From positions 3,968,001 to 4,032,000 of the forward strand of contig OZ251518.1 in assembly GCA_965242965.1 (NCBI GenBank): DNA of 64,000 nucleotides, written 5' to 3'. Shown here piece by piece: positions 26,352 to 46,081 of this stretch (positions are counted from its first letter, which is position 1; each line of letters starts with the position of its first letter). A program made the translations under genes and the position numbers. The notes beneath the pieces are model-generated. The model was not told the DNA's origin and ran no database searches. It saw only the letters and a program-made list of their open reading frames with translations. The stretch comes from Candidatus Poribacteria bacterium (GTDB taxonomy: Bacteria > Poribacteria > WGA-4E > WGA-3G).

Positions 26352-26409
26352 GTTGATGTTTCCTTTTTGTTTCCGAGTTTCGTAGTTTTTCTGGCAGAGT
26401 GCACCACCT

Positions 26410-27506: not shown

Positions 27507-29771
27507 TCAATTCTTCAACGCCTCCACCCAGTGCAAAATTTCTTCCCGATTGCGGACATCGTTGCGGGCCAAGGCGGTTCCCGTTTCAATCAAAAGCGCA
27601 TGGAGAGACTCGCGTTTGCCTTTCAATGCTAATGCATATTTTTCCTTCGCCGCGTCTAACTGCTTCCGGTGCATCAAACAGATTGCCGCGGTGCACCGCA
27701 CCCGAACGAGGATATCCGCGTCCGATTTGTCAGAACGCCGAGCTAACTGCGATTCCAACGATAGCAGATTCCAGAAGGCAGGCATATTGAGCCGGTCGCG
27801 TTGGAAAACCTGCTCAAATCCTGTCAACGCCTTCGTGAATTCGCCTTGCATCAAATAGAGATAGGCGATGGTATTGTCAATGTGAACATCCCTGTCGGCT
27901 TTCGGAATCGCCTCGAATTCGGTGAGGGCGGCGGCGTATTTCCGCTGCTGCATGCGTTCGTTGCCGCGTCGGATGTGCAGGTTCATCAGTTCGGCTTTCG
28001 CCTGTGGATTCTGCGGTTCTTGCGCCAGCACACGCGCGAGTTCTGCATCGGCGCGTTTGTCATCGCCCGCGCCTTGATACGCCTGCACGAGACTGAGACG
28101 GAGATTCAGGTCTTCCGGAACAATGCGGAGTGCCGCTGTCAAATGTTGGATGGCTGCATCGTAACGTTCCTGCTGGATGAGACTTCGGGCATAGTGATGA
28201 TAGGCGGCGATGAGGTTATGTTGCACCCATTCGGCGTTCGGCGTGGCGTTGTAAACCTTCTGAAACGCCGCCAGTGCCGCCGCATAATCACCTTTTTTGA
28301 GATAGAGTTCGCCAAGCAGGCTATGTCCCTGCGTATCGTTCGGCTGGAGTTTCACCACCTCTTGATACGCCGCAATCGCCGCGTCCACCTTCCCTGTCTC
28401 CCGATAGACATGTCCCTTTTGCGAGTATGCATCGATGAGATTCTTGCGCGCGATGTCAAACGTCGGCAGCACCTCCAAAGCGTTCCGATATGCATCGATG
28501 GCCGCGTCCCACAGTTTTCGGTTTCTCAGCGCGACACCGAAGTTGTTATAGCACTGCGCCAGGGCGCGCTGCATCACCGCGTCGACAGGGTTCATCTCCC
28601 GTGCCTTCAGGTAATAGCCGATTGCCTTTTCATACTCGCCGACCTGCGCGTAGCCGTTGCCCATCAGTTGATACGTGGGGGCATCGAGGGGTTTGAGCCG
28701 CAGTGCCTTCTCAAACGCCGCCGTCGCAGTGTCAAAGTCCCTGTCCGCCAACGCTTTGAACGCCTTTTCGCGTAGGAGTTGATGCAAGTTTCGCCTTGCG
28801 GCTTTATGATGCGGTTCAATGTCCAATGCGTTCTCAAACGCAAGCATTGCGCGCTCGTTCTCCTTTTGCTCGTAATAGAAAATGCCGAGGGTGTTATAGT
28901 CTGCCGGCGACGGTTTTAGCGTAATCCGTTTCTTAAGCAGTTCGATCGCTTCAAAAACCTGTCCCGTTTTTTGATAGGCTTGCACCAATTTCTCTATCGC
29001 CGGGCGGAAGTTGGGATTAAGGCGGCGACATGTCTGGAAGCAGTCAATCGCCGCTGCGATATTGCCTTTATCGAAGTAGACAGTGCCTAGCAGATAATGC
29101 GTTCGTAAATTCCTCGGCTTCCGCAAGATTTCTTCTTTCAGCAGTTTCATCGCGATGTCGTGCTGCGGCGTATCCAGCGGCGTGTTATAGAGTCTCAGCA
29201 ACGTTGCGATGTCACGTTCGGTAGGCTGCTGCGCTGTCGCCGTCGGATAGTTGATGTCGGCGGGGTGTGGGCTGTGTCCCCAGAGTCCGAGGGCGTGTCC
29301 AAATTCGTGGAGACAGACGGTGCGCATCTCTTCCTGCGTCAGTTCCCCGATAGAGCCATCTCCCTCTAACATCAGGATAACCTCCACCTTAAACCCTTGA
29401 GTGGCGTTCAGGCGTGTCAGTTCCGCGCTTCCGAGCCGCGTATCCTGAATGTCCATGAGGCTGCTATGTCCCCAGCTGACGCGGATGTCCGCCTGTTCTG
29501 GGGTTTCTGTTTCTTCAAAACGGATGGTTTCAGGTGCGGCGTTTTCCCATTCGTCCATGGCGTATCGGAGTTCGGGGAGATAGGGGCTCTCCAACAAAAT
29601 CGGCGAGATGTAGACACGGATGGGCATCTCCGTGAAGCGCGTAATTCTGCCATCAGAGAAGAGCGTGATGTGGTCGAAATAGTCTGTTTCTGGCGCGGCG
29701 AAGGTTGAACCTGCCGCTGCTATCGCGATGAGGGTAATGGTGAGCATGCTGGTTAGGGTTTTTAGGGACAT
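27507..29771 (-). CDS. Secreted matrixin-like (M10) zinc metalloprotease with long TPR array
   Basis: Signal peptide; 'HEFGHALGLWGHS', 'ERDIATL..LY'; more than 12 TPR units. Confidence 0.85.
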   Translation of the reverse strand: MSLKTLTSMLTITLIAIAAAGSTFAAPETDYFDHITLFSDGRITRFTEMPIRVYISPILLESPYLPELRYAMDEWENAAPETIRFEETETPEQADIRVSWGHSSLMDIQDTRLGSAELTRLNATQGFKVEVILMLEGDGSIGELTQEEMRTVCLHEFGHALGLWGHSPHPADINYPTATAQQPTERDIATLLRLYNTPLDTPQHDIAMKLLKEEILRKPRNLRTHYLLGTVYFDKGNIAAAIDCFQTCRRLNPNFRPAIEKLVQAYQKTGQVFEAIELLKKRITLKPSPADYNTLGIFYYEQKENERAMLAFENALDIEPHHKAARRNLHQLLREKAFKALADRDFDTATAAFEKALRLKPLDAPTYQLMGNGYAQVGEYEKAIGYYLKAREMNPVDAVMQRALAQCYNNFGVALRNRKLWDAAIDAYRNALEVLPTFDIARKNLIDAYSQKGHVYRETGKVDAAIAAYQEVVKLQPNDTQGHSLLGELYLKKGDYAAALAAFQKVYNATPNAEWVQHNLIAAYHHYARSLIQQERYDAAIQHLTAALRIVPEDLNLRLSLVQAYQGAGDDKRADAELARVLAQEPQNPQAKAELMNLHIRRGNERMQQRKYAAALTEFEAIPKADRDVHIDNTIAYLYLMQGEFTKALTGFEQVFQRDRLNMPAFWNLLSLESQLARRSDKSDADILVRVRCTAAICLMHRKQLDAAKEKYALALKGKRESLHALLIETGTALARNDVRNREEILHWVEALKN

Positions 29772-29848: not shown

Positions 29849-30343
29849 GGTAGGAGAGACCTCCTGGTCTCGATGCAATGGGGCGGCGGCGGCAGAAAGC
29901 CCCTTCATCGTAGGGCGAGGGCCCTCGGATGCCACACGCGCATGCGAGCGGGTTTCCCTCGCCATGCTGCGATCGCGGGGGACAGGCCCCCGCGCTACGG
30001 TGAAAAAAACGGTTCCCTTCACCGTAGGGCGAGGGCCTGTCCCTCGCCATCGTTTTGCTGCCAGACCCCTTCACACACATCGTGACGATGGAGTTCGCGG
30101 GGGACAGGCCCCCGCGCTACGATGGAAAAAACATGCCGATTACCGTAGGGCGAGGGCCTGTCCCTCGCCATCGTTTTGCTGCCAGAACCCTTCACCTCTG
30201 TAGGTCAGGATCGCCCGATCCTGACCCGTTCGGGATTAGGCGATCCCGAACTACAGCGGTGGGCCCGATGCCTTCCGGTAGGAGAAACATCAAGACAAGG
30301 AAGTCTCTCCTATCGGGAAGGCATTGATATATGAAACATCCTC
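29849..30343. repeat. Composite REP array with right TIR, bracketed by a 22-bp direct repeat
   Basis: TATGAAACATCCTC 30330-30343; TAACATATTGCGCGTTAAAAAG at 29809-29830 and 30353-30374. Confidence 0.88.
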
Positions 30344-30449: not shown

Positions 30450-33400
30450 TCAGGGCGTAACATCCCGCGCGCAACGAAAACCGATGAGGCCGTTCGCGTT
30501 CGTCGGCGAAAACCTGCCGCGAGGGGCGACGCGCAAGTTCTGTGCTGAATTGGGCCAACCGCCGCCGCGCAACACGCGCGAGGTTGTAACGTTTTGGTAA
30601 TTCGTCATCACTTCCGTTAGGGTCATCTCGCTGGCGAGCGGATTCCGCCGCGGCGAACGCGTATAGAAATCCGCCTCATACGCATCAAGGCACCACTCCC
30701 ACACATTCCCAGCCATGTCGTATAACCCATACCCATTCGGCGCATACATGCCAACCGGCGTTGTCAGCGGAGTAGGACTTCGGATAGACTTACCGTAGTT
30801 TGCCTTGCTAGCATCAATGCTGTAACCCCACGGGTATTTCTCATCCACCAAGCCGCCGCGTGCGGCTTTCTCCCATTCTGCCTCTGTCGGGAGCCGTTTC
30901 CCGGCCCACTGCGCGTACGCCATCGCCGCATACCAACTCACATACACCACCGGGTGGTTCCCTTTCCCACTCGGATAACTGTTACCACTCCAATCTTGGA
31001 GGTAGAGTCCACTGCGGTATTTTTTCGGAATCCGGTTTTTCTGCCACGGTGGGTTTGCATCGACAAACGCCTTGAACTGCGCATTCGTGACTTCGTATTT
31101 ATCAATGTAGAATGCATCGACGTAAACGGTATGTACGGGTTTTTCATTGTCTTCTGCGTCGCTGTCGTTGCTGCCCATTTGGAAGTCGCCGGCGGGAATC
31201 CGCACCATCTCCGTGCCATCTTTCCCAAGAATCGTCGATGTGTGCGCGCCTTGCTGAGGAATTGCTTGTTTCTCCAATTGGACATCCCGCTGCCCCTCCT
31301 GACCTCCTTGTGTAACAGCCCGCGCGCAACGAAAACCGATGTAGACGCTCAAGTTCGCCGGCGTAAACCTGTTGCGATTGGCGACGCGCAAGTCCCGCGC
31401 TGTAAGGCCCCAACTGCCGCCGCGCAACACGCGCGAGGTTGTAACGTTAACGTTTTGGTAATTCGTCATCAGTTCTGTCATGTTCATCTCGCCGGCGAGC
31501 GGATTTTGAGGCTGCGAACGCGCGTAGAAACCCTCCTCATGCGCATCAAGGCACCACTCCCACACATTGCCGGCCATGTCGTATAACCCATACCTATTCG
31601 GCGCGTACGTGCCAACCTGCGTTGTGTTTCCAACATCCTTGTTGTAGTTTGCTTGGCTGGTGTCAATTGCATTCCCCCATGGGTATTTCTTGTCCACCAA
31701 GCCGCCACGGGCCGCTTTCTCCCACTCTGCCTCTGTCGGGAGCCGTTTGCCGGCCCACTGCGCATACGCCATCGCCGCATACCAACTCACATACCTCACC
31801 GGATGGTTCCCTTTCCCACTCGGATAACTGTTCCCACTCCAATCTTGGAGGTAGTTTCCACTGTGGTATTTTTGCGGAATCCGGTTTTTCTGCCACTGGG
31901 GGTTTGCATCGACAAACGTCTTGAACTGCGCGTTCGTCACCTCGTAGGTATCAATGTAGAACGCATCCACATAGACGGTATGCGCGGGTTTTTCATCGTC
32001 TCCTGCGTCGCTGTCGTTGCTGCCCATTTGGAAGTCGCCGGCGGGAATCAGCACCATTTCAGTAGTATCTGGTATAGCAGCGGGTTTGGGACGTGCTTGT
32101 GTTTCCAATTGGACATCCTGTTGCACCTCCTGACCTCCTTGTGTAACATCCCTCGCGCAACGAAAACCGAAGTGGCCGTCCGTGCTCGCTGGCGTATTGC
32201 CGCCGCGACCGGCGACACGCAAATCCTGTGCGGTAAAGATCCAACTGCCGCCGCGCAACACGCGCGAGGTTGTAACGTTTTTGTAATTCGTCATCACTTC
32301 CGTTAGGTTCATCTCGCCGGCGAGCGGATTCCGCCGCGTTGAACGCGCATAGGAATCATACGCATCAAGGCACCACTCCCACACATTGCCGGCCATATCG
32401 TATAACCCATACCCATTCGGCGGATACGTGCCAACCGGCATTGTGTTTCCAACAGTCTTGTTGTAGTTTGCTTGGCTGATGTCAATTGCATTGCCCCACG
32501 GGTATTTCTTGCCCACTAAGCCGCCGCGGGCGGCTTTCTCCCACTCTGCCTCTGTCGGGAGCCGTTTGCCGGCCCACTGCGCATACGCTATCGCTGCATA
32601 CCAACTCACATGCCTTACCGGATGGTTCGATTTCCCACGGGGATAATTATTGCCATCCCAATGCATGAGGTAACCGTGGAAGTCAGTGGGCATGGCGAAC
32701 TGCTCATCAATTTTGTCTTTTTGCCACTGTGGGTTTGCATCGACAAACGCCTTGAACTGTGCATTCGTCACTTCGTATTTATCGATGTAGAACGCGTCTA
32801 CGTAAACGGTATGCATCGGTTTTTCATGGCTGTATGCCTCGTGGTCGTTGCTGCCCATTTGGAACTCGCCGGCGGGGATGAGCACCATTTCAGTAGAGGC
32901 TGGCATAGCAGCGGGTTTGGGACGTGCTCGTTTCTCCAATTGAACATCCCACGGAACTTCTTGTCCACCCCTCAGTGTCACACCTCTCACTTGGCTTTTG
33001 TAACCGGGGAGTTCTATGCCAAGTTCTACCTGCTTTTCTCGCGTTGTTCCGGTGTCAACCTCAAAGCCGCGCAACGGCGTTTTGCCGATAGCGGCACCGT
33101 CAAGATAAACACTCGCGCCGTTCGGTGTGCTGGTCACCTGCAAGGTTGCGATGGTGGCAAACTTTTCCAATCGGACTGTCCATGGCATGCTTTGCCCACC
33201 TTTCAATGTCAAGGTTGTTGTTCGGCTTTTATAGCCTTCGGATTCCAAGCGGACATGAACCTGTTTGACGCGTCTCACCCCAGTGTCGATTTGATAGCCG
33301 CGCATCGGTGTTTTCCCGATGACAATCCCCTCAAGATAAACCGTCGCGCCGCGGGGAGTGCTTGTTACGTTTAACGTCGCTATTGTAGATAAGGCATCGC

Positions 33401-34292
33401 CAGGAGGAGGAGGTGCTTCCCGCGGCAAGACGAATACAAAATCCCCCTGGTTCAGTTTGGGGTTGTTGATTTTGCCATACTGCGGGTTTTGCCCACGGTT
33501 ATATTTCGGGACTTCGGTTTTCAGATAGAGCCCTAACTCCGCGCCGGTAATGTAACCGTCCGCAATAGGTTCCTGCGCGATGCCTTTAACGAGGTTCAGA
33601 AATGCCTCCTTAAAAACACTGTGATCTGGCACGGTTTCATCGGCGCGGCCGGCCGTGATGAATTGTCGCACGGGATATTTGACGTTGTTTGAGACATAAG
33701 GCGGCGGAATCTGGCTGCGCGCATTGAGAATCGTGCCAGAGAAACAGCTGTCAAACATAAACAGCACATGCCGTGACTGCATGCGCCGTGACTGCGTCAC
33801 CAGCGATTCCATGTCCACACTTTTGCTACCGTCGATGCCGTCGTTTTTTGGGAAAGGCGCGTCTACCATGACGAGGTATCCAAGGTGTTCGCCATCGGCA
33901 AGTTCCTCAGTGTAACCGTGGCCCGCGTAGTAGAAAAGGAGTCGGGCATCCTCGTTTTTTCCGTTCTGGACGAACGTCTCAAAGGCATCTTCAAACTTGT
34001 CTTTTGTCAGGTCGGTTTTGAGGGTGACGTTGAAGCCGTGTGTTTTGAGTGCCGCGGCGACTTCCTGCACGTCGCGAGTTGCGCCGGGCAGCGGGTCCCA
34101 GCCATTTCGGTAATTTCCGTTTCCGACGATGAGCGCGTAAGAGGCTTTATAGAGTTCAATCTCTTCGCCGGTGTTTGTTCGGACGCTGATTTTCATGCCG
34201 CGGTTGGTTTGCGGGCAGAGGTCTGGCGCGCCGATGAAAATGGCGGCACTACCAAAGACGATGGCAATAAGGGTGATGAATACGGTTTTCAT
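30450..34292 (-). CDS. Secreted caspase (peptidase C14)-PEGAx2-(FGE-sulfatase/CLec)x3 protein; putative DGR target
   Basis: Signal/TM; dyad 'YYAGHG' and 'FDSCFSG'; two 'VTSTP.GA.VYL.G..IGKTP' PEGA; three 'IPAG.FQMGS...RLPTEAEWEKAARGG...GNVWEW...RGGSW...GFRC' domains. Confidence 0.92.
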   Translation of the reverse strand: MKTVFITLIAIVFGSAAIFIGAPDLCPQTNRGMKISVRTNTGEEIELYKASYALIVGNGNYRNGWDPLPGATRDVQEVAAALKTHGFNVTLKTDLTKDKFEDAFETFVQNGKNEDARLLFYYAGHGYTEELADGEHLGYLVMVDAPFPKNDGIDGSKSVDMESLVTQSRRMQSRHVLFMFDSCFSGTILNARSQIPPPYVSNNVKYPVRQFITAGRADETVPDHSVFKEAFLNLVKGIAQEPIADGYITGAELGLYLKTEVPKYNRGQNPQYGKINNPKLNQGDFVFVLPREAPPPPGDALSTIATLNVTSTPRGATVYLEGIVIGKTPMRGYQIDTGVRRVKQVHVRLESEGYKSRTTTLTLKGGQSMPWTVRLEKFATIATLQVTSTPNGASVYLDGAAIGKTPLRGFEVDTGTTREKQVELGIELPGYKSQVRGVTLRGGQEVPWDVQLEKRARPKPAAMPASTEMVLIPAGEFQMGSNDHEAYSHEKPMHTVYVDAFYIDKYEVTNAQFKAFVDANPQWQKDKIDEQFAMPTDFHGYLMHWDGNNYPRGKSNHPVRHVSWYAAIAYAQWAGKRLPTEAEWEKAARGGLVGKKYPWGNAIDISQANYNKTVGNTMPVGTYPPNGYGLYDMAGNVWEWCLDAYDSYARSTRRNPLAGEMNLTEVMTNYKNVTTSRVLRGGSWIFTAQDLRVAGRGGNTPASTDGHFGFRCARDVTQGGQEVQQDVQLETQARPKPAAIPDTTEMVLIPAGDFQMGSNDSDAGDDEKPAHTVYVDAFYIDTYEVTNAQFKTFVDANPQWQKNRIPQKYHSGNYLQDWSGNSYPSGKGNHPVRYVSWYAAMAYAQWAGKRLPTEAEWEKAARGGLVDKKYPWGNAIDTSQANYNKDVGNTTQVGTYAPNRYGLYDMAGNVWEWCLDAHEEGFYARSQPQNPLAGEMNMTELMTNYQNVNVTTSRVLRGGSWGLTARDLRVANRNRFTPANLSVYIGFRCARAVTQGGQEGQRDVQLEKQAIPQQGAHTSTILGKDGTEMVRIPAGDFQMGSNDSDAEDNEKPVHTVYVDAFYIDKYEVTNAQFKAFVDANPPWQKNRIPKKYRSGLYLQDWSGNSYPSGKGNHPVVYVSWYAAMAYAQWAGKRLPTEAEWEKAARGGLVDEKYPWGYSIDASKANYGKSIRSPTPLTTPVGMYAPNGYGLYDMAGNVWEWCLDAYEADFYTRSPRRNPLASEMTLTEVMTNYQNVTTSRVLRGGGWPNSAQNLRVAPRGRFSPTNANGLIGFRCARDVTP
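30453..30580 (-). other. Putative DGR variable region (gene 1, domain 3, C-terminal)
   Basis: Differences from sister domains fall at codon positions 1-2 with the third base conserved (see findings). Confidence 0.75.
31311..31436 (-). other. Putative DGR variable region (gene 1, domain 2, internal)
   Basis: Same pattern. Confidence 0.7.
32142..32268 (-). other. Putative DGR variable region (gene 1, domain 1, internal)
   Basis: Same pattern. Confidence 0.7.
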
Positions 34293-34371
34293 GATGGCGC
34301 GGATTTTAGCATGTTACGCCTTAAAAAGCAAGGGTATTTTCTCTATAATCAGAAAAACGTCCCAGTGCGCG

Positions 34372-34607
34372 CGTAGGGCGAGGGCCTGTCCCTCGCCGTG
34401 CTGGGTTCTGATTCCCGTTGCGCGCGTAGGGCGAGGGCCTGTCCCTCGCCGTGCTGCGGTCTAACGCCTCGGGAGTTCGTAGGGCGCGGGCCTGTCCCTC
34501 GCCATGCTGGGTTCTGGTTTTGCATCGAGACCAGGAGGTCTCTCCTACCGGTGTTGCATCGAGACCAGGAGGTCTCTCCTACCGGGGCCGCCTGTCCCTC
34601 GCCCTAC
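34372..34607. repeat. REP-like array
   Basis: Three A-family and two B-family hairpins; terminal GTAG supplies the stop of 34604..36253. Confidence 0.85.
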
Positions 34608-36253
34608 GGTTGTGTGGCGTTTTTGCTAAGCGTCGTAATCACAAGACGCGCTTCACTCTGTTGCGCATGAGGACGTTGCTGCTTCTTTTTCATCCCGCGA
34701 AAAGCGCGAGCTGCCTGTTCAGCATCTTCTGCCTTCAAAAATAGATACCCATCGCTTTCGTAGGACTCGATGACTGGAAACTTATCGGTCCGCGCCGCGA
34801 CGATAAGCAATTCTGCGCCAAACGGAGCTGCACACTCAAACTCTTCCGGAATCTCAACAACACGATTAACCTTCGACTCATCGATATAGTAGTTGTCATA
34901 GAGGAGCGTGTGCCGGCCATCGGCAAGGATATAGAGGATGCGGATGTAAGCCGCTTGATTGACACGGACAGAAACCAGCATTGTCTCGCCTTCGGTATAA
35001 AGCGGATGCTCACTCGGGCTGTTTGTCCAGACATCCACCCGCAGCGCGCCACTGACGAATTCGCCTTCGGCAAACGCTTTTTGTGATATGAGAGCCGCCT
35101 GCCAATTTTGCGGTTTGAAGTCCATATCCGTAAGGCGCGAGAAGGTGACTGCGGTGCCAGCCTTGACTGCACCGGTATCGACATCGCGCAGCGTCGTCCG
35201 AAGGGTGATTGCATCGCTGTTTTCCCAATAGGTGCCGGAGAGCAGCAACGTCGCGCCCGCACTTTTGGTAAAATCGCGCATCAGTTGCGCGGAACGGGGA
35301 CGAACGTTTCCGCGGGAACGGTGCTTTTCAGTGACGGTGTGCCACTTGCCGATTTGTCCGAGTTGTGCCTCCAGCGCGGCGCGGAATTCACGCGAAAAAC
35401 GGCTATTCATCTGCGTATCTTGATAGGTAGGGGCTACCAGCAACACTTTCCCTGCGAGGTGACGCACCTGTTTTGAGAGTTGAAAGACAACGGCACGCGC
35501 AATATCATCAACGGAAGTGATTGCGGCAGTTGAGACGAGGTGCTCAACGCGATTCATTACCTCGGTGTGCGACATCAGGGGACTATCTCCCACGCCGGAA
35601 TCGCCTTTTGTGGCTCTTTCCAATTCGGCGAAGGCGGTGTCTGCAGAAATCGCGACCGGGAGGGCGCGCCTACTGGAGAGTTTTGCCACCGTCAAGATAG
35701 TCTCCGCCTCTTTCAACGCTTCGTAAAGCGGCGCGGTGCTCAGGTATTTCTCCACGGCGAGAGAGATTTTATCCTCGTTTTCTGCGGTGTGGGCATCGGC
35801 AAGGATGCGCCGGATTTCGGCGCGGCGTTGGACAGCGCGTTGCGTATAGAGCCGCTTGAGCTCGGCGCGCGAAATCCATGCGAGGACATACGCGGTATGC
35901 TGGCCATCGTAATGCTCAAGCGAAAGTCCCATCAGTTGCAGCGCAGTGGAACTTTGAGTGGTTGCACTGAAATGTTCGGAGACACCGTGCCTCGTCTCTT
36001 CCTCGCCGGTGGAAATAACGCTTTTGATGTTTGTGACAATGTGGCGAGAAACTTCTGCGCGGGCGTTGTCTGCGGCAATCTGGCGTGATTCGGCACCGTT
36101 CCCCTGCGCACTCCCGAAGCCGACGAGATAACTGTGTGATGGATGCCTTTTGGACACGCCGAAGTTGCGGACCCAATCGGGTGCGTCGGCGTGCGCGGTT
36201 GTGGTGAGGGAGATAAGGAATATGAAAAATAGAGAGATGCGCGTGGTTTTCAT
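34604..36253 (-). CDS. Secreted LPP20-like + DUF4384-like domain protein
   Basis: Signal peptide ending AHA, 'PDWV', 'A.DNARAE'; C-terminal 'VWTN....Y..GE...V.V.VNQ.AY..ILY..ADG', 'PFGAELL'; domain names by recollection. Confidence 0.65.
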   Translation of the reverse strand: MKTTRISLFFIFLISLTTTAHADAPDWVRNFGVSKRHPSHSYLVGFGSAQGNGAESRQIAADNARAEVSRHIVTNIKSVISTGEEETRHGVSEHFSATTQSSTALQLMGLSLEHYDGQHTAYVLAWISRAELKRLYTQRAVQRRAEIRRILADAHTAENEDKISLAVEKYLSTAPLYEALKEAETILTVAKLSSRRALPVAISADTAFAELERATKGDSGVGDSPLMSHTEVMNRVEHLVSTAAITSVDDIARAVVFQLSKQVRHLAGKVLLVAPTYQDTQMNSRFSREFRAALEAQLGQIGKWHTVTEKHRSRGNVRPRSAQLMRDFTKSAGATLLLSGTYWENSDAITLRTTLRDVDTGAVKAGTAVTFSRLTDMDFKPQNWQAALISQKAFAEGEFVSGALRVDVWTNSPSEHPLYTEGETMLVSVRVNQAAYIRILYILADGRHTLLYDNYYIDESKVNRVVEIPEEFECAAPFGAELLIVAARTDKFPVIESYESDGYLFLKAEDAEQAARAFRGMKKKQQRPHAQQSEARLVITTLSKNATQP

Positions 36254-36646
36254 AGCGATCCTTGGAGAACAGATTCTAGCCTATCGTAATATAGCATCGG
36301 ATCGATTAAAAGGCAAGCGTTTTTTTAATCAGGATTTGCAGGATTTGCAAGATTAGAGGACATTCGCGTTATGGAAATCTGCTGGAGGTCTGAATTTTCT
36401 TTCCATTGATCTTTGTGATAGATCTAGACCGCAAGACGATCCGAGTTGACAATAAAGCGCAGATCTGAAGAAAAATTGATTGCGATCAAAAAAATAAAAT
36501 TGGATTTAGATATTCGCAAAAGAATACTATATTAAGCCTAGTAGGAGTTTTCAGGTGCCATTCGTCGCGCGGGAGAAAATGCTCCCGCTTCTTGTGCAAT
36601 CACTTGTTAGTGACTCTGAAATTAATATATAATAAGGAGAAAAATA

Positions 36647-36976
36647 ATGCAATTTGAAAGGAAGACGAAATCCGAGACAACAGAAACAGTAAAAATCTCT
36701 ACAGATCCAGCGGAGAGGGCCCATGTTCGGGTTAATCAAAAATCCGGTGAATATGAGATCACTACCTCGCCAATTCCCTGTGATCACAAATCGGGTGAAT
36801 GTAAAGTCATCACCTTGCGAATTCCTTCCATAGGTGGTTGTCTACGCAGATGCCTCACCTTCGTTAAGGATTGGAATTTTCTGTTCCAGGCAGTTAGATT
36901 CGTCATGGAGAACTTCCCAGAGTTTGTCTTAATTGTCTGGGCTTTGTTCCGTTTTCTAGGTGTTATGCCCAATTAG
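36647..36976 (+). CDS. Small hypothetical protein with hydrophobic C-terminus
   Basis: RBS TAAGGAG; lies in an AT-rich segment; no recognisable motif. Confidence 0.45.
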   Translation: MQFERKTKSETTETVKISTDPAERAHVRVNQKSGEYEITTSPIPCDHKSGECKVITLRIPSIGGCLRRCLTFVKDWNFLFQAVRFVMENFPEFVLIVWALFRFLGVMPN

Positions 36977-37224
36977 TTTCTGTAGTTCGGGATCGCCTGA
37001 TCCCGAACAGTCAAGATCGCTTGGAAACCAGTATGCCAGAGTTTCAGGCGATTTTGACCTACAGAGACGAGGCAAATCAACGTCAGTTGGTATTAGAGGG
37101 AAATCTTTATGCAAACAAGGCATGCTATCGGATAATTGGATAGTTTTGTTCGTCTTTTTGTGCAAAGGTGCAATTACTTGTAGTGCTACTATCTGCAAGA
37201 ACAGAAGGGGTAAAGGAGTTAGGG

Positions 37225-40092
37225 TTAAGGGGTAACATCCTTCGCGCAACGAAAACCGAGGTTGACGGCCGTGAACGTTGGCGGATTCCTGTTGCGATTG
37301 GCGACACGCAAGGCCAGCACTGACGAGAGCCAACTGCCGCCGCGCAACACGCGGTCATTGTGGTCCTGAACCTTCGCGAAGCCATCTTCAACCCATCCTC
37401 CCGCCACCGGATTCCGATGTGGCGAACGCCTATAGAAAGCTGCCTCCCACTCATCAATGCACCACTCGTAGACATTGCCCGCCATATTGTGTAATCCGTA
37501 TCCGTTCGCCGGGTAACTGCCGACAGGGGCAATGAACGCGTGCCCATCGTTCACACTGTCATCTGTCCAAGTTATCCAATCAATATTGAGGTTAGCTAGA
37601 GTGACATCGGCGAAGTTACACTGCGTTCCATCCGGCGCACTGTTACCCCACGGGTATTTCTTGCCTTCCAAGCCGCCGCGTGCGGCTTTCTCCCACTCTG
37701 CCTCTGTCGGGAGCCGTTTGCCGGCCCACTGCGCATACGCCATCGCTGCATACCAACTCACGAACATCACAGGGTGGGTGTCTTCCCCACTCGGATAACT
37801 GTTCTCCGTCCAGGAGTCTAGGTAGTCTCCATCATGATATTTGTCAGGGATGTTGTCCTTCCGCCACTGTGGGTTTGCATTGACAAACGCCTTGAACTGC
37901 GCGTTCGTCACCTCGTATTTGTCCATGTAGAATGCACCGACGTAAACGGTATGCACAGGTCTTTCATTGCCTTCCGTGTTGCTGTCGTTGCTGCCCATTT
38001 GGAACTCGCCGGCGGGGATCAGCGCCATATCCGCGCCATCTTGTCCAAGAATCGTTGATGGGTGCGCGCCTTGCTGAGGGATTGCCTGTTTTTCCAATTG
38101 GACATCTCGCGGTCCCTCCTGACCTCCTTGCGTAACAGCCCTCGCGCAACGAAAACCGATGAGGTTGAACGTGGCCGTGGGCGGCCTGCTGTTGCGATCG
38201 GCGACATGCAAGCTCCGTGCGACGAAGCCCCACGACCCGCCGCGCAACACGCGGGCATTGTGGGTCTGAACCTTCGCGAAGCCATCTCCAACCCATCCCC
38301 CCGCTACCGGATTCCGATGTGGAGAACGCGAATAGAAAGCTGCATCCCACTCATCAATGCACCACTCGTGGACATTGCCCGCCATATTGTGTAATCCGTA
38401 TCCGTTCGCCGGGTAACTGCCGACAGGGGCAGTGAACGCGTGACCATCGTTCACATTGTCATTTGTCCAAGTTATCTCATCAATATTGCGGTTAGCCAGA
38501 GTGACATCGGCGAAGTTACACTGCGTTCCGTCCGGCGCACTGTTGCCCCACGGGTATTTCTTGCCTTCCAAGCCGCCGCGTGCGGCTTTCTCCCACTCTG
38601 CCTCTGTTGGGAGCCGTTTGCCGGCCCACTGCGCATACGCCATCGCCGCATACCAGCTTACAAGAACAACTGGATGGTTACCGGCCCCACTCGGATAGTC
38701 GTTGCCATTCCAGAGGTTGAGGTAGTAGCCATTGTGGTATTTGTCAGGGATGTTGTCCTTCTGCCACTGTGGGTTTGCGTCGACAAACGCCTTGAACTGC
38801 GCGTTCGTCACCTCGTATTTGTCCATGTAGAATGCATTGATGTAAACGGTATGCACTGGTTTTTCATAGTCTTCTGCCTCGCTGTCGTTGCTGCCCATTT
38901 GGAACTCGCCGGCGGGGATGAGCACCATCTCGGCACCGTCTCGTCCAATTATCGTCGGAGCAAGCGTTGATTCTAAGGCGACATCCCAGGGGAGGTTTTG
39001 TCCACCTGTCACTGTAACGTTTTTCATTAGGTTTTTGTAACCAGCGAGTTCTAAGCCGATTTCTATCTGCTTTTCACGCCTGATTCCCGTGTCAATCTCC
39101 TGGTTGTGTAATGGCGTTTTTCCGACAGCGGCCCCATCAACGTAGACTGTTGCACCGCTGGGAGTGCTCGTTATATGCAACGTTGCGAGTGTAGGGAGTT
39201 CGGCAGTGTTTCGCTGCGGTAGCACGAAGACAAAATCGCCCTTATCTAACTTCGGGTCTTGGATTTTACCGTATTGTGGGTGTTGCGCCTCGTTGTATAT
39301 CGGGACCTGATTCTTCAGATACAATCCCAACTCCGCACCAGTGATATAACCATCGCGGAACGGTTCGGCAGCGCGGCCGTCAATGAGGTCAAGGAACGCT
39401 GTTTTGAACACGCTCCGGTCAGGCACGGGTTCGTTCGCGCGCCCGGCGGTGATGAATTGCCGCACGGGATGCCGAATGTTATCCGAAATGCTCTCGGGTC
39501 TCACCCGGTCGCGTGCATTCAAAATAGTGCCGGAGAAGCAGCAGTCAAACAGGAACAGGACATGCCGTGCGAGTATCGCCTTGGATTCACCGACAAGCGT
39601 TTCCATGTTGACGCTTTCTCGGACAAAGCCGAGTTTGTCGATGTCAGGTTCTGGTGCGTCTACCATGACGAGATACCCGCGTTCCTGGGCGTTGGCAAGT
39701 GGCAGGGTGTAACCGTGTCCTGCATAGTAAAAGAGGAGACGGTTGTTTTCGTCTGCCCCGTGCTCTAACACGAATGTGAGGAATGCGTCCTCAAATTCAT
39801 CTGCGGTGAGATCGGTTTTAAGGGTGACGTTGAAGTCGTGTGTTTGGAGTGCCTCGGCGACTTCTTTCACGTCTTGTATCGCGCCCGGCAGCGGGTCCCA
39901 TCCGTTAGTGTAGTTTCCATTTCCGATGACGAGTGCGTAAGAGGCGTTGTAGAGTTCAATGTGTTCGCCGGCACTGGTGCGGACGCTAATTTTCATGCCG
40001 CGGCGGGTTTGTGGGTGCAGCGTTGTGGTGCCGATGAAAATGAGGGCACCACAGAGCAAAACAACAAAAAGTGAGATGCTAAAGATTTTCAC
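37225..40092 (-). CDS. Secreted caspase (C14)-PEGA-(FGE-sulfatase/CLec)x2 protein; putative DGR target
   Basis: GTG start after GAGGTG RBS aligns with paralog N-termini; 'YYAGHG', 'FDCCFSG'; one PEGA; two CLec domains. Confidence 0.92.
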   Translation of the reverse strand: MKIFSISLFVVLLCGALIFIGTTTLHPQTRRGMKISVRTSAGEHIELYNASYALVIGNGNYTNGWDPLPGAIQDVKEVAEALQTHDFNVTLKTDLTADEFEDAFLTFVLEHGADENNRLLFYYAGHGYTLPLANAQERGYLVMVDAPEPDIDKLGFVRESVNMETLVGESKAILARHVLFLFDCCFSGTILNARDRVRPESISDNIRHPVRQFITAGRANEPVPDRSVFKTAFLDLIDGRAAEPFRDGYITGAELGLYLKNQVPIYNEAQHPQYGKIQDPKLDKGDFVFVLPQRNTAELPTLATLHITSTPSGATVYVDGAAVGKTPLHNQEIDTGIRREKQIEIGLELAGYKNLMKNVTVTGGQNLPWDVALESTLAPTIIGRDGAEMVLIPAGEFQMGSNDSEAEDYEKPVHTVYINAFYMDKYEVTNAQFKAFVDANPQWQKDNIPDKYHNGYYLNLWNGNDYPSGAGNHPVVLVSWYAAMAYAQWAGKRLPTEAEWEKAARGGLEGKKYPWGNSAPDGTQCNFADVTLANRNIDEITWTNDNVNDGHAFTAPVGSYPANGYGLHNMAGNVHEWCIDEWDAAFYSRSPHRNPVAGGWVGDGFAKVQTHNARVLRGGSWGFVARSLHVADRNSRPPTATFNLIGFRCARAVTQGGQEGPRDVQLEKQAIPQQGAHPSTILGQDGADMALIPAGEFQMGSNDSNTEGNERPVHTVYVGAFYMDKYEVTNAQFKAFVNANPQWRKDNIPDKYHDGDYLDSWTENSYPSGEDTHPVMFVSWYAAMAYAQWAGKRLPTEAEWEKAARGGLEGKKYPWGNSAPDGTQCNFADVTLANLNIDWITWTDDSVNDGHAFIAPVGSYPANGYGLHNMAGNVYEWCIDEWEAAFYRRSPHRNPVAGGWVEDGFAKVQDHNDRVLRGGSWLSSVLALRVANRNRNPPTFTAVNLGFRCAKDVTP
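37228..37353 (-). other. Putative DGR variable region (gene 2, domain 2, C-terminal)
   Basis: Same pattern; retains AAT CGC AAC AGG AAT template-like codons. Confidence 0.75.
38131..38253 (-). other. Putative DGR variable region (gene 2, domain 1, internal)
   Basis: Same pattern, GGG TCG TGG variant. Confidence 0.65.
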
Positions 40093-40200
40093 GGGATTCA
40101 CCTCTTCAAGAAGAACGATTTTGGGCAAGGTTACGAAGAATTTCCTGCGGAGATGGTTGCCGGCCAGCAGAAAACCGAAAACCAAATGACGTTGACATTA

Positions 40201-40229
40201 ATTATACACAAAATGTTGATTAATGTCAA
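40201..40229 (-). promoter_or_regulatory. Consensus sigma70 promoter of gene 37225..40092
   Basis: TTGACA-17-TATAAT on the minus strand. Confidence 0.7.
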
Positions 40230-40402
40230 AGTTGTGGGGAAATTTCATGGCAATTCAGTTTTCCTCATAACCACTTTTCGTTTGATAGGCACGCAACTGA
40301 CTGGAAAACGGAACGCCTCTCTCCTCGGGTTGTGCCGAAGTTTGATTATTTGTGATGCCTTTTCTATAAACAGCAGATCAGAAGAGGTAAAGGTGTGACG
40401 AA

Positions 40403-43249
40403 TTAAGGGGTAACATCGCTCGCGCAACGAAAACCGGTGTCGACGTTCGTGAGCGTTGGCGGATTCCTGTAGCGATTGGCGACACGCATGAACTGCGCTG
40501 TACCGCCACAACCGCCGCCGCGCAACACGCGGGCATTGTGGTCCTGAACCTTCGCGAAGCCATCTCCAACCCATCCCCCCGCTACCGGATTCCGATGTGG
40601 AGAACGCGAATAGAAAGCTGCATCCCACTCATCAATGCACCACTCGTAGACATTGCCCGCCATATTGTGTAATCCGTATCCGTTCGCCGGGTAACTGCCG
40701 ACAGGGGCAGTGAGCGCGTGACCGTCGTTCACATTGGCATCCGTCTCAATTCTCTCATCAATGTTAGCATCAATGTTAGCCAGAGTGACATCGGCGAAGT
40801 TACACTGCGTTCCGTCCGGCGCACTGTTGCCCCACGGGTATTTCTTGCCTTCCAAGCCGCCGCGTGCGGCTTTCTCCCATTCTGCCTCTGTCGGGAGCCG
40901 TTTGCCGGCCCACTGCGCATACGCCATCGCCGCATACCAGCTTACAAAAACAACTGGATAGTTACCTTGTCCACTCGGATAGTCGTTGCCATTCCAGAGG
41001 CCTAGGTAGTCTCCATCGTGGTAGACGTGCGGAATTTGGTTTTTCCGCCACTGCGGATTTGCATCGACAAATGCCTTGAACTGCGCGTTCGTCACTTCGT
41101 ATTTGTCGATGTAGAATGCATCGACATAAACGGTATGCACCGGTTTTTCATTGTTATTTGCCTCGCTGTCGTCGCTGCCCATCTGGAACTCACCTGCGGG
41201 GATGAGCACCATCTCGCTCGTGTCTGGCATAGCATTGGCTTTGGGAGGTGCTTGTTTTTCCAGTAACTTCGTTGGAGTAACAGCCCTCGCGCAACGAAAA
41301 CCGCCGCTTGAGTCCGTGGCCGCGGGCGTAAACCAGAAGCGATAGGCGACGCGCAAGCCCGATGCGGCGGTGCCCCACGACCCGCCGCGCCACACGCGGG
41401 CACTGTAGGTCTGAACCTTCGCGAATCCATCTCCAACCCATCCACGCCCCACCGGATTCCGATGTGGCGAACGCCTATAGAAAGTTGCATCCCACTCATC
41501 AATGCACCACTCGTAGACATTGCCCGCCATATTGTGTAATCCGTATCCGTTCGCCGGGTAACTGCCGACAGGGGCAGTGAGCGCGTGACCATCGTTCACA
41601 TTGGCATCTGTCCAAATTCTATAATCAGGATCGAGGTTAAGCAGAGTGACATCGGCGAAGTTACACTGCGTTCCATCCGGCGCACTGTTGCCCCACGAGT
41701 AGGTCTTGCCATCTAACCCACCACGGGCGGCTTTCTCCCATTCTGCCTCTGTCGGGAGCCGTTTGCCGGCCCACTGCGCATACGCCATCGCCGCATACCA
41801 GCTTACAAAAACAACTGGATAGTTACCTGTTCCACTCGGATAGTCGTTGCCATTCCAGAGGTCTAGGTAGCTTCCATCATGATATTTCTCAGAGATGTTG
41901 TCTTTCCGCCACTGTGGATTTGCATCGACAAACGTCTTGAACTGCGCGTTCGTCACTTCGTATTTGTCGATGTAGAATGCATCGACGTAAACGGTATGCA
42001 CCGGTTTTTCATTGTCTTTTGCGTTGCTGTCGTCGCTGCCCATCTGGAAGTCGCCGGCGGGGATGAGCACCATCTCCGCGCCATCTTGTCCAATAATCTG
42101 TTGGACAAGCATAGGTTCTAAGGGGATATCCCAGGGCACGTTTTCTCCGCCTATCAAGGTGACGTTTTTCACCCGGCTTTTGTAACCGGCGAGTTCTAAG
42201 CCGATTTCTACCGGCTTCTCACGCTGCACACCCGTGTCAATTTCATAGTTGCGTAAGGGCGTTTCCCCGATGGGGGCACCGTCAAGATAGACCGTCGCGC
42301 CGTTCGGTGTGCTCGTCACATTCACCGTCGCGAGTGGCGGGAGGTCTGCCTGAGGTGGCGAAGTATGCCGCTGAGGCAGCACGAAGACAAAATCGCCTTT
42401 GTCTAACTTCGGGTCTCGGATTTTACCGTATTGTGGGTGTTGCGCCTCGTTGTATATCGGTACCTGATTCTTCAGATACAATCCCAACTCTGCACCGGTA
42501 ATGTAACCATCGCGGAACGGTTCAGCAGCGCGGCCATCAATGAGGTCGAGGAATGCGGTTTTGAACACGCTCCGGTCAGGCACGGGTTCGTTCGCGCGCC
42601 CGGCGGTGATGAATTGCCGCACAGGATGCCGAATGTTATCCGAAATGCTCTCGGGGCTGATTCTGTCGCGCGCGTTGAGAATGGTGCCGGAGAAGCAGCA
42701 GTCAAACAGAAACAGGACATGCCGTGCGAGTATCGCCTTGGATTCACCGACAAGGGTTTCCATGTTGATACTGCCTCGGACGAAGCCGAGTTTGTCGGTG
42801 TCGGGCTCTGGTGCGTCTACCATGACGAGATAGCCGCGCTCCTGCTCGTTGGCAAGCGGCAGGGTGTAACCGTGTCCGGCGTAGTAAAAGAGGAGCCGGT
42901 TGTTTTCGTCTGCGCCATGTTCCAACACGAACGTGAGGAACGCGTCCTCAAACTCATCTGCGGTGAGATCGGTTTTGAGGGTGACGTTGAAGTCGTGTGT
43001 TTTGAGTGCCTCGGCGACTTCTTTCACGTCTTGTAGTGCCCCGGGCAGCGGGTCCCATCCGTTTGTGTAATTGCCATTTCCGATGACGAGTGCATAGGAG
43101 GCGTTATAGAGTTCAATGTGTTCGCCGGCACCGGTGCGGACGCTAATTTTCATGCCGCGGCTGGTTTGGGAGCGCAAGTCTGTGGTGCTGATGAAGATGA
43201 TGGCACCACAGAGGATGATAACAAATAGGAAAATGAGAGACGTTTTCAT
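40403..43249 (-). CDS. Secreted caspase (C14)-PEGA-(FGE-sulfatase/CLec)x2 protein; putative DGR target
   Basis: Caspase domain almost identical to that of 37225..40092; RBS GAGGA. Confidence 0.92.
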   Translation of the reverse strand: MKTSLIFLFVIILCGAIIFISTTDLRSQTSRGMKISVRTGAGEHIELYNASYALVIGNGNYTNGWDPLPGALQDVKEVAEALKTHDFNVTLKTDLTADEFEDAFLTFVLEHGADENNRLLFYYAGHGYTLPLANEQERGYLVMVDAPEPDTDKLGFVRGSINMETLVGESKAILARHVLFLFDCCFSGTILNARDRISPESISDNIRHPVRQFITAGRANEPVPDRSVFKTAFLDLIDGRAAEPFRDGYITGAELGLYLKNQVPIYNEAQHPQYGKIRDPKLDKGDFVFVLPQRHTSPPQADLPPLATVNVTSTPNGATVYLDGAPIGETPLRNYEIDTGVQREKPVEIGLELAGYKSRVKNVTLIGGENVPWDIPLEPMLVQQIIGQDGAEMVLIPAGDFQMGSDDSNAKDNEKPVHTVYVDAFYIDKYEVTNAQFKTFVDANPQWRKDNISEKYHDGSYLDLWNGNDYPSGTGNYPVVFVSWYAAMAYAQWAGKRLPTEAEWEKAARGGLDGKTYSWGNSAPDGTQCNFADVTLLNLDPDYRIWTDANVNDGHALTAPVGSYPANGYGLHNMAGNVYEWCIDEWDATFYRRSPHRNPVGRGWVGDGFAKVQTYSARVWRGGSWGTAASGLRVAYRFWFTPAATDSSGGFRCARAVTPTKLLEKQAPPKANAMPDTSEMVLIPAGEFQMGSDDSEANNNEKPVHTVYVDAFYIDKYEVTNAQFKAFVDANPQWRKNQIPHVYHDGDYLGLWNGNDYPSGQGNYPVVFVSWYAAMAYAQWAGKRLPTEAEWEKAARGGLEGKKYPWGNSAPDGTQCNFADVTLANIDANIDERIETDANVNDGHALTAPVGSYPANGYGLHNMAGNVYEWCIDEWDAAFYSRSPHRNPVAGGWVGDGFAKVQDHNARVLRGGGCGGTAQFMRVANRYRNPPTLTNVDTGFRCASDVTP
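40406..40531 (-). other. Putative DGR variable region (gene 3, domain 2, C-terminal)
   Basis: Same pattern. Confidence 0.75.
41277..41399 (-). other. Putative DGR variable region (gene 3, domain 1, internal)
   Basis: Same pattern, GGG TCG TGG variant. Confidence 0.65.
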
Positions 43250-43272
43250 AGAATTTCCTCAGGCTACAGATT

Positions 43273-43427
43273 CGTCGGTGATCGAACGGATACGAACTAT
43301 CGAGACCGGGAGGTCTCGCCTACGGGAGCATCCGATGCGTCGGTGATCGAACGGATACGAACCATCGAGACCGGGAGGTCTCTCCTACAGGAGCATCCGA
43401 TGTGTCGGTTATTGAACGGATACGAAC
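43273..43427. repeat. 65-bp tandem repeat x2.4, each full unit holding a B-family REP
   Basis: Units begin at 43273, 43338 and 43403 (CGTCGGTGATCGAACGGATACGAAC..). Confidence 0.9.
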
Positions 43428-44695: not shown

Positions 44696-46081
44696 TCATT
44701 CCGAAATGTCAAGCGAAAATTCTGTCAACAACGCCGCCAACGGGTTGCAGAGAATCTCTTCGCTTTCGGCATCTATCAAGGAATGACACGTGCCATCTTT
44801 CAACTCATAAACGGCGACTTCGTCGGCAGAGAGCCAACACCGGTCTGGTGCAAGTTTGGCTATCCGGGCCGCCGCCGCCACCGAGGACTGCTTTTTTATC
44901 GCTGGTGCCGCACGCAACAAGGTTTGAAGCACCGTCAACACATACGGACTATGCGTTGTCAGCACGACTTGGGATTCCTCCGTGTTCAGCAGCAACGCGA
45001 TACACTCGATGAGTTCCTTCTGCGCGGTTGGATAGAGACTCGCCTCGGGTTCTTCGATTACCCGAAATACGGTGTCATTGTATATCACCGTGAAGAAGAT
45101 GTCTTGGAGGAGGCGGAGCGTGTTCTGTTCGCCGGCTGAAGCCGCGAGTAACGGGACCGAGCCTTCGCCGGTAGGCTGATTGAACAGCGATTTTTTGTCA
45201 TCTGCCGTTCCGTATGTGCCTTTGAGGATGCGCGCCATCTTTTCCATGAGGAATTCTGCGGCAGGCGCATCGAGTTCATCATCCTCATCATCCTCATCAT
45301 CCTCGCCTACCCGTTCGGCGAGGAGGGCATGGTAGTCTTGCTCGTTAAAGGTTTGCAAGAACTCCTCGTTTTTCTCCAAGAGCTGCGCCAGGAGGTAGCT
45401 CTGCACGGCGGGTGCAGGGTTGCGTTCTACATCGCGTTCAAAGAGCTCCCTTTTGATGCCGCCGTAGAAGACGCGTTTGAAGGCATCCGGATAGTGTGAG
45501 ATAATCTGCCGGCCTGCCGGGATATAGAGGTTTCTGAACTGCGTGCCGAAGAACCGTTCGGTGATGCCGCGAATCCCGGTCCCGAGGAAGATTTCAAGGA
45601 ACATCCGTTCACCGGGGGTAAACGTATTCGCTTGTTGGGAAGTGCCCTCCTTGAGAGACTTCTCCTTCGCCTTGCGCAGGCCAGCCTGATACTCCTTGTA
45701 AACTTCGTTCAGCTCGTCCGTGAGAGCGGGGAGCGTGATGTCGAGCTGCCCATCGTCCGTTAAAGCGAGGGTGACAGCACTTTCATCGGTATAGTGATAC
45801 GTAATCTCAAACGGACCGAGGTGGGTGAGTTCACCAAAAAAGAGGCGGAATTGCTGCGCAAAGTGGTGCTGGAACGTTGGAACGAGTTGCTGCTCGCCTT
45901 CCCAATTCACCTCCCAGAGCCATTTGCGGAGGGAGTAGGTGACGTTGTGGAAGAAGTAGAGCAGTTGCGCGAGCGTGCTTTTGCCACTGGCCTGTTCGCC
46001 GATGAGCACGACAAGTTTCTTATCCATGTCAAGCTCCGCCTCGCGGGTATGAATGAAATTTTTCACGATGAGTTTTGGCAT
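44696..46081 (-). CDS. ABC/AAA_21-type ATPase (AbiEii/OLD-related)
   Basis: Walker A 'GEQASGKS', signature 'SAGEQ', Walker B 'IEEPE..LYP', H-loop 'TTHSPY'. Confidence 0.82.
   Translation of the reverse strand: MPKLIVKNFIHTREAELDMDKKLVVLIGEQASGKSTLAQLLYFFHNVTYSLRKWLWEVNWEGEQQLVPTFQHHFAQQFRLFFGELTHLGPFEITYHYTDESAVTLALTDDGQLDITLPALTDELNEVYKEYQAGLRKAKEKSLKEGTSQQANTFTPGERMFLEIFLGTGIRGITERFFGTQFRNLYIPAGRQIISHYPDAFKRVFYGGIKRELFERDVERNPAPAVQSYLLAQLLEKNEEFLQTFNEQDYHALLAERVGEDDEDDEDDELDAPAAEFLMEKMARILKGTYGTADDKKSLFNQPTGEGSVPLLAASAGEQNTLRLLQDIFFTVIYNDTVFRVIEEPEASLYPTAQKELIECIALLLNTEESQVVLTTHSPYVLTVLQTLLRAAPAIKKQSSVAAAARIAKLAPDRCWLSADEVAVYELKDGTCHSLIDAESEEILCNPLAALLTEFSLDISE

Follow-up and report, generated by a model that had tools for sequence, protein, structure and literature searches.

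We analysed a 64,000-nucleotide stretch (the window) of the genome of a Candidatus Poribacteria bacterium (contig OZ251518.1 of assembly GCA_965242965.1, positions 3,968,001 to 4,032,000). It carries three minus-strand genes, here called A, B and C, which encode caspase-like proteases fused to lectin-type modules. The host genome (G000) measures 5.70 Mb, in 2 contigs (C1 and C2) with zero N in the assembly. Seven 111-nt segments, one at the end of each lectin-type domain, are genuine variable regions (VRs) of a diversity-generating retroelement (DGR), of which the three genes are remote targets. In a DGR, a reverse transcriptase (RT) and Avd copy the RNA of a template repeat (TR), miscopying its adenines, and the resulting cDNA takes the place of the VR, which forms the 3' end of a C-type-lectin domain. 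About a dozen residues of the ligand-binding face are thereby randomised, and the scaffold is left untouched.

Genes and variable regions in the window

The three genes were:

Gene A, 30450..34292, minus strand: open reading frame (ORF) of 1280 amino acids; Pfam domains Peptidase_C14, two PEGA and three FGE-sulfatase.
Gene B, 37225..40092, minus strand: 955 amino acids from the ATG at 40092; Peptidase_C14, PEGA and two FGE-sulfatase.
Gene C, 40403..43249, minus strand: ORF of 948 amino acids; a paralog of gene B with identical architecture (Peptidase_C14, one PEGA, two FGE-sulfatase).

For gene B, the ORF listing runs on to a TTG at 40185, and the 955-amino-acid form is that of the protein-collection record. 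The domain order was common to all three: an N-terminal hydrophobic signal or anchor segment, read directly from the sequence, and then the Pfam domains Peptidase_C14, PEGA and FGE-sulfatase. Peptidase_C14 scored 67.9 bits in gene A, and 69.6 and 68.4 in the other two (cut-off 21.4). The C14 domains contained YYAGHGY and FDSCFSG or FDCCFSG, which we take to hold the catalytic His and Cys. FGE-sulfatase (PF03781) was recognized in 3, 2 and 2 stretches in genes A, B and C, respectively, with E = 4.1e-201 for gene A, where PEGA was found in two stretches. A VR ended every FGE-sulfatase domain. Using phmmer, the C-terminal domain of gene C matched FGEs with E = 5e-44 and TvpA (PDB 2y3c) with E = 5e-11, the latter across the VR part. 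No Cys pair followed RGGS(W/F), where the two active-site cysteines of a catalytic FGE would lie, in any of the seven VRs; a lone Cys was found in C2, at the Trp position. We do not class these domains as enzymes.

The VRs are listed below with their deviations from 76 scaffold columns, that is, columns in which at least 10 of 13 VRs of this genome agree on a non-A base. These counts are circular, because both the columns and the 13 VRs were picked by conservation.

VR A3, 30468..30578, minus strand: terminal domain of gene A; 37 codons, from RVLRGG to GFRCA; 0/76 deviations.
VR A2, 31323..31433, minus strand: second FGE domain of gene A, internal; 1/76 deviations.
VR A1, 32154..32264, minus strand: first FGE domain of gene A, internal; 1/76 deviations.
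VR B2, 37243..37353, minus strand: terminal domain of gene B; 1/76 deviations.
VR B1, 38143..38253, minus strand: internal domain of gene B, more decayed; 6/76 deviations, 3 of them in common with C1 (GGG TCG).
VR C2, 40421..40531, minus strand: terminal domain of gene C; 2/76 deviations; TGT stands in place of the conserved Trp codon TGG.
VR C1, 41288..41398, minus strand: internal domain of gene C, more decayed; 6/76 deviations.

The degenerate motif for GFRCA (GGNTTYCGNTGYGC) had 7 copies in the window, all on the minus strand (30469, 31324, 32155, 37244, 38144, 40422 and 41289), one for each FGE-sulfatase domain end across the three ORFs. The chance expectation was 0.11 copies, and 0 of 100 shuffles had at least 7.

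Codon positions, template adenines and a common scaffold

Between the 21 domain pairs, the domain bodies differed at codon positions 1, 2 and 3 in 723, 676 and 1344 cases, and the VRs in 258, 220 and 120 (chi-square p = 3.5e-37, for pairs that are not independent). Counted by column, positions 1, 2 and 3 varied in 66, 65 and 122 of the 199 codons of the bodies, and in 19, 18 and 12 of the 37 codons of the VRs. The bodies are thus dominated by drift, and the VRs, changing at codon positions 1 and 2, show the opposite pattern. A sequence-only reading of the window, made before this analysis, had claimed such a reversal of ordinary drift. A codon table of the seven 37-codon segments reproduced all the codon series it had listed (ATC/GGC/CCC/GGC/CTC/GGC/GGC, and the NNT, NCG and NNC series), the invariant GTC GCC, CGC and GGT TTT CGT TGC GCG, and the exceptions TCG, TCA, AGG and TGT.

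The templates for an adenine test were the TRs adjoining avd and RT in three relatives (G004, G009 and G024). They were found independently of the window, so that the test is a real one and not the observation restated. The seven VRs varied at all 27 columns with A in the three TRs, but at only 10 of the 57 columns in which the TRs had one common non-A base (Fisher p = 4.6e-14). Taken pair by pair, the mismatches between a VR and a TR numbered 15-27 at the 30-34 A sites and 10-16 at the 77-81 non-A sites, with a Fisher p for the enrichment at A sites between 5e-4 and 2e-9. At the 27 A columns, the VRs had A in 81, G in 49, T in 38 and C in 21 of the 189 cells. Conversely, the TRs of the relatives held A at 28-30 of the 35 columns variable in the host genome and agreed with 63-67 of the 76 fixed columns. 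In the alignment they read AAC or AAT at the VR-variable sites, and the similarity between VRs and TRs stopped just past TGCGCGA. Adenine mutagenesis by a DGR, the central proposal of the sequence-only reading, is borne out by these results: related genomes have a TR and an RT, and the mismatches are enriched at template adenines. The template it had reconstructed from the seven VRs was, read side by side, close to the actual TRs of the relatives.

A protein-pattern scan of the host genome returned 27 VR-like segments, 23 of them with 37 codons. An almost exact common DNA scaffold united 13 VRs: the seven of the window, one adjacent to an avd gene (see below) and five near 1.24-1.26 and 1.43 Mb. 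The avd-adjacent VR deviated at 2 of the 76 scaffold columns, and the ten remaining 37-codon segments at 5-18. A comparison on conservation-picked columns (7.2% vs 43.9%) is circular and was replaced by one on TR-defined columns. For this non-circular test, eight VRs were chosen beforehand (the seven and the avd-adjacent one), and columns were called non-A by the TRs of the relatives only. Third-position differences between the eight VRs then amounted to 65/532 (12.2%) in the non-A columns, compared with 1151/2962 (38.9%) in the 120 codons upstream of each VR and 318/855 (37.2%) in the same columns of the ten other VR-like segments. The silent positions of the VRs were therefore homogenised long after the gene bodies had diverged. 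Repeated overwriting from one template would yield exactly the homogenised silent positions seen here.

Cassette remnant at 5.27 Mb and its counterparts in relatives

Searching the host genome with Avd proteins of relatives (tblastn), we found a match at C1:5271416-5271748, with 82% identity to the Avd of G009 over 111 amino acids (E = 2e-59). The corresponding avd gene (C1:5271392-5271760) is an intact ORF of 122 amino acids, with 82.5 bits for the Pfam family PF22296 bAvd (cut-off 40). It was the only avd found in this genome, and the identical 122-amino-acid protein is on record from 15 contigs. The gene order was two cohesin genes, a cohesin-dockerin-FGE target gene and, directly after it, avd. 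Homologues of the same three genes precede the cassette of G024, with the cohesin pair in reverse order. On the 3' side of avd lie ~1.35 kb of palindromes of the repetitive extragenic palindrome (REP) type (L070 7770-9120 = C1:5271769-5273119), followed by a PorV-like gene. The REP array occupies the slot that RT and TR hold in the relatives, and by the gene order of these relatives, RT and TR probably once sat there. REP or REPIN expansion, or recombination, is suggested as having removed the engine. The remnant is ~1.27 Mb away from the targets in the window. VRs A1, A2, A3, B2 and C2 differed from the avd-adjacent VR at 1-4 of the 76 scaffold columns, and the gene bodies differed at 34-39% of the upstream nucleotides. 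The 5.27-Mb cassette thus appears to be the engine that wrote the VRs of the window.

The REP core (CGCGGGGGACAGGCCCCCGCG) has 836 and 844 exact copies on the two strands of the chromosome. When as many as 3 mismatches were allowed, it matched 64 times in the window, where 0.01 matches were expected; each palindromic site is counted twice. Many intergenic spacers of the window are full of REP palindromes, among them those at 29900-30300, 34370-34590, 36980-37050 and 43299-43400.

The sequence-only reading had expected a TR next to RT and avd in this genome. The avd part of this expectation stood; RT and TR were absent from the assembly, and what the genome carries is therefore the footprint of a DGR and not a working one. 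The RVT_1 profile gave matches in 16 of the 41 genomes searched (the host genome and 40 relatives), with 0 candidates in the host genome. The DGR RTs of three relatives, run against both contigs with tblastn, had a best E of 0.32, and a profile of the relatives' RTs (hmmsearch --max, 42,740 six-frame segments of the host genome) a best E of 0.29; neither search found an RT. Contig C2 (38,183 bases) had only two short stretches in common with the chromosome (78-83% identity) and no RT match. Blastn at word size 7, run with the VRs of the window and with the relatives' TRs, found no TR in either contig; its matches were VR-like ends of other FGE ORFs, apart from a short non-coding remnant and the end of a broken FGE gene. 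The TRs of the relatives reached a best identity of at most 77%, and their matches were VRs in FGE ORFs, except for the tail of one broken FGE gene.

Two segments were considered as TR and rejected. One (C1:1437157-1437259), beside two FGE genes, is that tail, from an FGE gene that is broken or overlaps another, and the locus has no RT. At this place (L001 8451-10410 = C1:1436450-1438409), an FGE gene continues from its VR region into unrelated DNA and overlaps the first part of the FGE gene that follows. Four FGE genes are clustered here, and this one is probably a paralog with a frameshift or a fusion. The other (C1:31236-31303, on the minus strand) is not A-rich; it is a short, non-coding leftover from the 3' end of a VR. 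One frame of it reads IGFRCMRAITP and then a stop, with no FGE domain upstream.

Complete target-avd-RT-TR cassettes were present in G004, G009, G024 and 4 further Poribacteria records. In the three named genomes the RT frames are open (356-372 amino acids), and the order is target(s), avd, RT, TR. Decay of the cassette is recurrent across the phylum. Among the 12 avd-bearing Poribacteria loci examined, 7 were complete (avd, RT and TR) and 5 eroded:

Host genome (G000): avd intact, RT and TR gone.
G007, contig C1 (L075 1483-1968): avd cut short near residue 88 and running into the final 11 codons of the RT, TR kept.
G020: a piece of avd next to a transposase-like gene.
G024, second locus: avd interrupted by a TAG stop.
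One further record: avd fragment of 31 amino acids.

The TR of G007 is apparently intact, A-rich and 87% identical to that of G024, and a VR-bearing target lies upstream of it. The genes flanking the complete cassettes of G004, G009 and G024 map to three places in the host genome, none of which is the 5.27-Mb remnant, and the two genes flanking the G024 cassette adjoin each other there. The cassette module has therefore moved.

Two comparisons bear on the timing. The 90% cluster of the avd-adjacent target has three further proteins. Two of them, at 93% identity to this target, are changed mainly in the VR; the third is 90% identical and frameshifted in the VR. Targets of ~93% identity that differ mainly in the VR indicate that the cassette was active among close lineages. 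The second comparison is with the syntenic locus of the same-genus genome G002 (82-90% DNA identity). It has two such genes with one FGE domain each, flanking an LPP20 gene, so that the locus has two VRs in G002 and seven in the lineage of the host genome. Both G002 VRs had 4 fixed non-A differences from the host scaffold in common, which points to lineage-specific TRs and to writing after the split. With the queries used here, no RT, avd or TR was found in G002 or in another same-genus genome, G001, where TR-like matches reached at most 74%.

The LPP20 gene and the other neighbours of the target genes were annotated as follows:

34604..36253, minus strand: LPP20/DUF4384 lipoprotein-like gene (Pfam) between genes A and B; its G002 ortholog is 90% identical and in the same position.
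27507-29771, minus strand: directly downstream of gene A, 754 amino acids, matrixin (Peptidase_M10) and many TPR repeats; at the corresponding place beside the gene A ortholog, G002 has a gene for a 786-amino-acid protein.
23340-26420, 44696-46081 and 46091-47473, minus strand: defence-like flanking genes, of the types Eco57I-type restriction-modification methylase-like, AAA_15/AAA_21 ATPase and ATPase_2/DUF234 protein.

Present state and origin of the variable regions

Read data came from Logan contigs of four sponge-metagenome runs, which represent at most 4 samples from 2 studies, one of them possibly the source sample. All six listed runs with a readable organism label were metagenomes, five of them from sponges; the four runs used belong to a further five whose organism label was coded. 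Contigs of all four runs spanned VR B2 (36981-37385) and VR C2 (39849-40563) with 0 other letters. None of the 14 variant positions listed for these data fell inside any of the seven VR cores; for A1-A3, B1 and C1, where no spanning contig was visible, only this absence of listed variants applies. As Logan contigs hide rare variants, the runs are weak evidence for a frozen state. A scan of the metagenome contigs for Avd gave 46 loci with a best-segment identity of at most 64%, none of them a close relative, and was uninformative on whether other strains retain the RT.

The contigs had many joints between ~34.4-34.6 kb and 43.3 kb, with sides of <30 letters in intergenic stretches. Contig depth was very high at 34233-34669, 36855-37291 and 42973-43400, and the spacer repeats at 34.4-34.6 kb and 43.3 kb have many copies in sister genomes. 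We considered the joints as deletions and rejected this; with their sides in multi-copy intergenic repeats, we take them for cross-joins between repeats.

A second assembly encodes a version of the gene B protein (P0003) that differs in 37 of the 955 residues and in 0 of the 74 VR residues, B1 and B2 being identical. The differences form patches that match paralog sequence. Compared with 37225-40092 of the window, P0003 has the N-terminal signal region of gene C, and B1-type sequence inside its second lectin domain. Such patches suggest that gene conversion may act among the paralogs and tandem domains.

Our preferred reading, to which we assign a probability of roughly 0.78, is that the seven VRs are genuine remote DGR targets, now orphaned and probably frozen, and that their former engine was the 5.27-Mb cassette. 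The three caspase-like proteases, which are exported or anchored and bear 3, 2 and 2 lectin modules, would all have been remote targets of this single cassette. Writing of the VRs would have gone on after the paralogs and tandem domains diverged, and also after the split of the sister species. A REP-type palindrome array would then have replaced RT and TR, leaving the cassette's own target and avd in place. With this, writing would have stopped, and the VRs would now be ordinary, frozen coding sequence. The proteins themselves may couple ligand sensing to proteolysis at the cell envelope. The missing engine and the identity of the VRs favour, and do not prove, that they are probably frozen now.

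Several points weigh against this reading. At 94.66% completeness, RT and TR may lie on unassembled or extrachromosomal DNA; single-contig relatives have 94-96%, so the value need not signal missing DNA. Diversification at low frequency could have escaped the contigs, which drop rare variants, and one of the runs may come from the source sample itself. The two gene B assemblies are near-identical outside a few gene-conversion-like patches, so that they can have been apart for only a short time. The slot of the REP array holds no RT or TR residue. The avd is intact and most of the VR scaffolds are almost undecayed, which would also agree with a loss in the very recent past, or with an engine that part of the population still has. 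Finally, B1 and C1 have GGG TCG in place of the GGC AGT/GGT of the others, and codon 16 is CGT in some VRs and CGC in the rest, so there may have been several templates or several episodes of writing.

Some of these points would also fit a DGR that still acts in trans and still uses the avd, with its RT and TR on unassembled DNA (a plasmid, a phage or a repeat-rich stretch) or in part of the population. The intact 122-amino-acid avd ORF, with its exact protein on 15 contigs, agrees with this, and so do the 0-2 deviations in 76 scaffold columns of A1, A2, A3, B2 and C2 and the genome completeness. Complete cassettes in three chromosomal neighbourhoods of three relatives suggest mobility, and PMC10907252 and PMC5758913 document remote or trans targets for other DGRs. 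Nevertheless, we consider a DGR acting in trans unlikely, given two contigs without N in which the searches found no RT or TR, a REP array in the very slot of the cassette's RT and TR, B2 and C2 identical in all four runs, B1 and B2 identical in the second assembly, and the same lack of RT, avd and TR, by these queries, in G001 and G002. Very unlikely, in our judgement, is a different cassette that wrote the VRs of the window and was lost without a trace, the likeness to the avd-adjacent VR being only the similarity of related TRs. The GGG TCG of B1 and C1 and the split of codon 16 would fit it, and some Poribacteria do have more than one cassette or remnant (two avd loci in G024, an extra RT fragment in L082). 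Yet the TRs of other species agree at just 63-67 of the 76 columns, whereas A1, A2, A3, B2 and C2 come within 1-4 columns of the avd-adjacent VR despite the upstream divergence of 34-39%, and a single avd was found. An origin of the NNC/NNT pattern without any retroelement, by diversifying selection on binding-site residues together with codon bias, is barely credible. The variable residues do lie in that part of a lectin-type domain that binds the ligand, a plausible site of positive selection, and RT and TR are not present in the genome. But selection leaves unexplained why all 27 adenine columns of independently found TRs vary, why third positions differ in 12.2% of the VR comparisons against 38.9% in the flanks and 37.2% in the other segments, and why an avd lies beside one of the VRs.

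A wider and speculative picture, quite improbable as it stands, is that the Poribacteria DGR cassette, with cohesin genes, target, avd, RT and TR, is a mobile module, repeatedly gained and eroded, and that large families of lectin-type genes keep VR ends competent for homing as standing targets, with episodic hypermutation across the genome as a result. If this were true, each arrival would rewrite a dozen or more surface sensors before the engine is lost. The intact avd and near-pristine scaffolds would then mark a strain that has only just been through such rewriting, or one for which other members of the population still supply an engine. The Poribacteria records are in any case a natural series of decay states, which can be used to study DGR targets after hypermutation has stopped.

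The locus bears on how Poribacteria, which are uncultured sponge symbionts, may recognise the surfaces of host, prey or phage. On the orphaned-target reading that we prefer, a retroelement diversified a family of ~13 lectin-type modules in this genome, of which seven belong to three caspase-like proteases, and its engine was then discarded. The orphan VRs can be traced to the lost engine through the avd remnant and the templates of relatives. For annotation this is a warning, as a DGR-type signature does not imply a live DGR. A literature search of titles and abstracts found no paper on DGRs in Poribacteria or sponge symbionts, although supplementary tables of surveys may list such cases; as far as this search reaches, the locus is a first case documented for Poribacteria.

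The single traits of the system have precedents, as tandem multi-FGE targets, caspase-fused targets, remote targets and the loss of DGR parts are all already published (PMC10907252, PMC5758913, PMC7517822). Wu et al. 2018 (PMC5758913) describe FGE-type targets ("category b / CLec1"), one of them with three tandem FGE domains that are all apparently diversified, as well as remote targets >100 kb from the RT and seven non-adjacent targets for Treponema. As in the DGR of Treponema denticola with its target TvpA, the VR here is formed by the last ~37 codons of a C-type-lectin domain of the FGE-sulfatase type. Unlike in Treponema, no RT or TR was detected, the lectins are fused to a caspase-like peptidase and PEGA, ~13 VRs lie on one scaffold, and the host is a sponge-symbiont member of the Poribacteria.

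For Thiohalocapsa PB-PSB1, Dore et al. 2024 (PMC10907252) report three tandem VR-bearing C-type-lectin domains, caspase-like CHAT targets, incomplete loci, remote targets whose diversification occurs in trans, and arrays resembling miniature inverted-repeat transposable elements (MITE-like) that degraded redundant DGR components. According to the same paper, other intact RTs remain in Thiohalocapsa and diversification is seen in natural populations, whereas our genome yielded no RT of any kind and the available data no variation. In cyanobacteria, an orthocaspase-like peptidase fused to a C-terminal, DGR-diversified C-type lectin has many remote paralogs, as stated by Vallota-Eastman et al. 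2020 (PMC7517822). These authors point to one paralog that retains some TR-VR homology although no RT lies near it, and suggest that the components for diversification may be lost after selection of a variant. The Poribacteria targets differ from these in phylum and habitat, in the presence of PEGA and in having up to three lectin modules per protein. They also differ in that the remnant of the cassette can be traced: avd is still there, and REP repeats stand in place of RT and TR.

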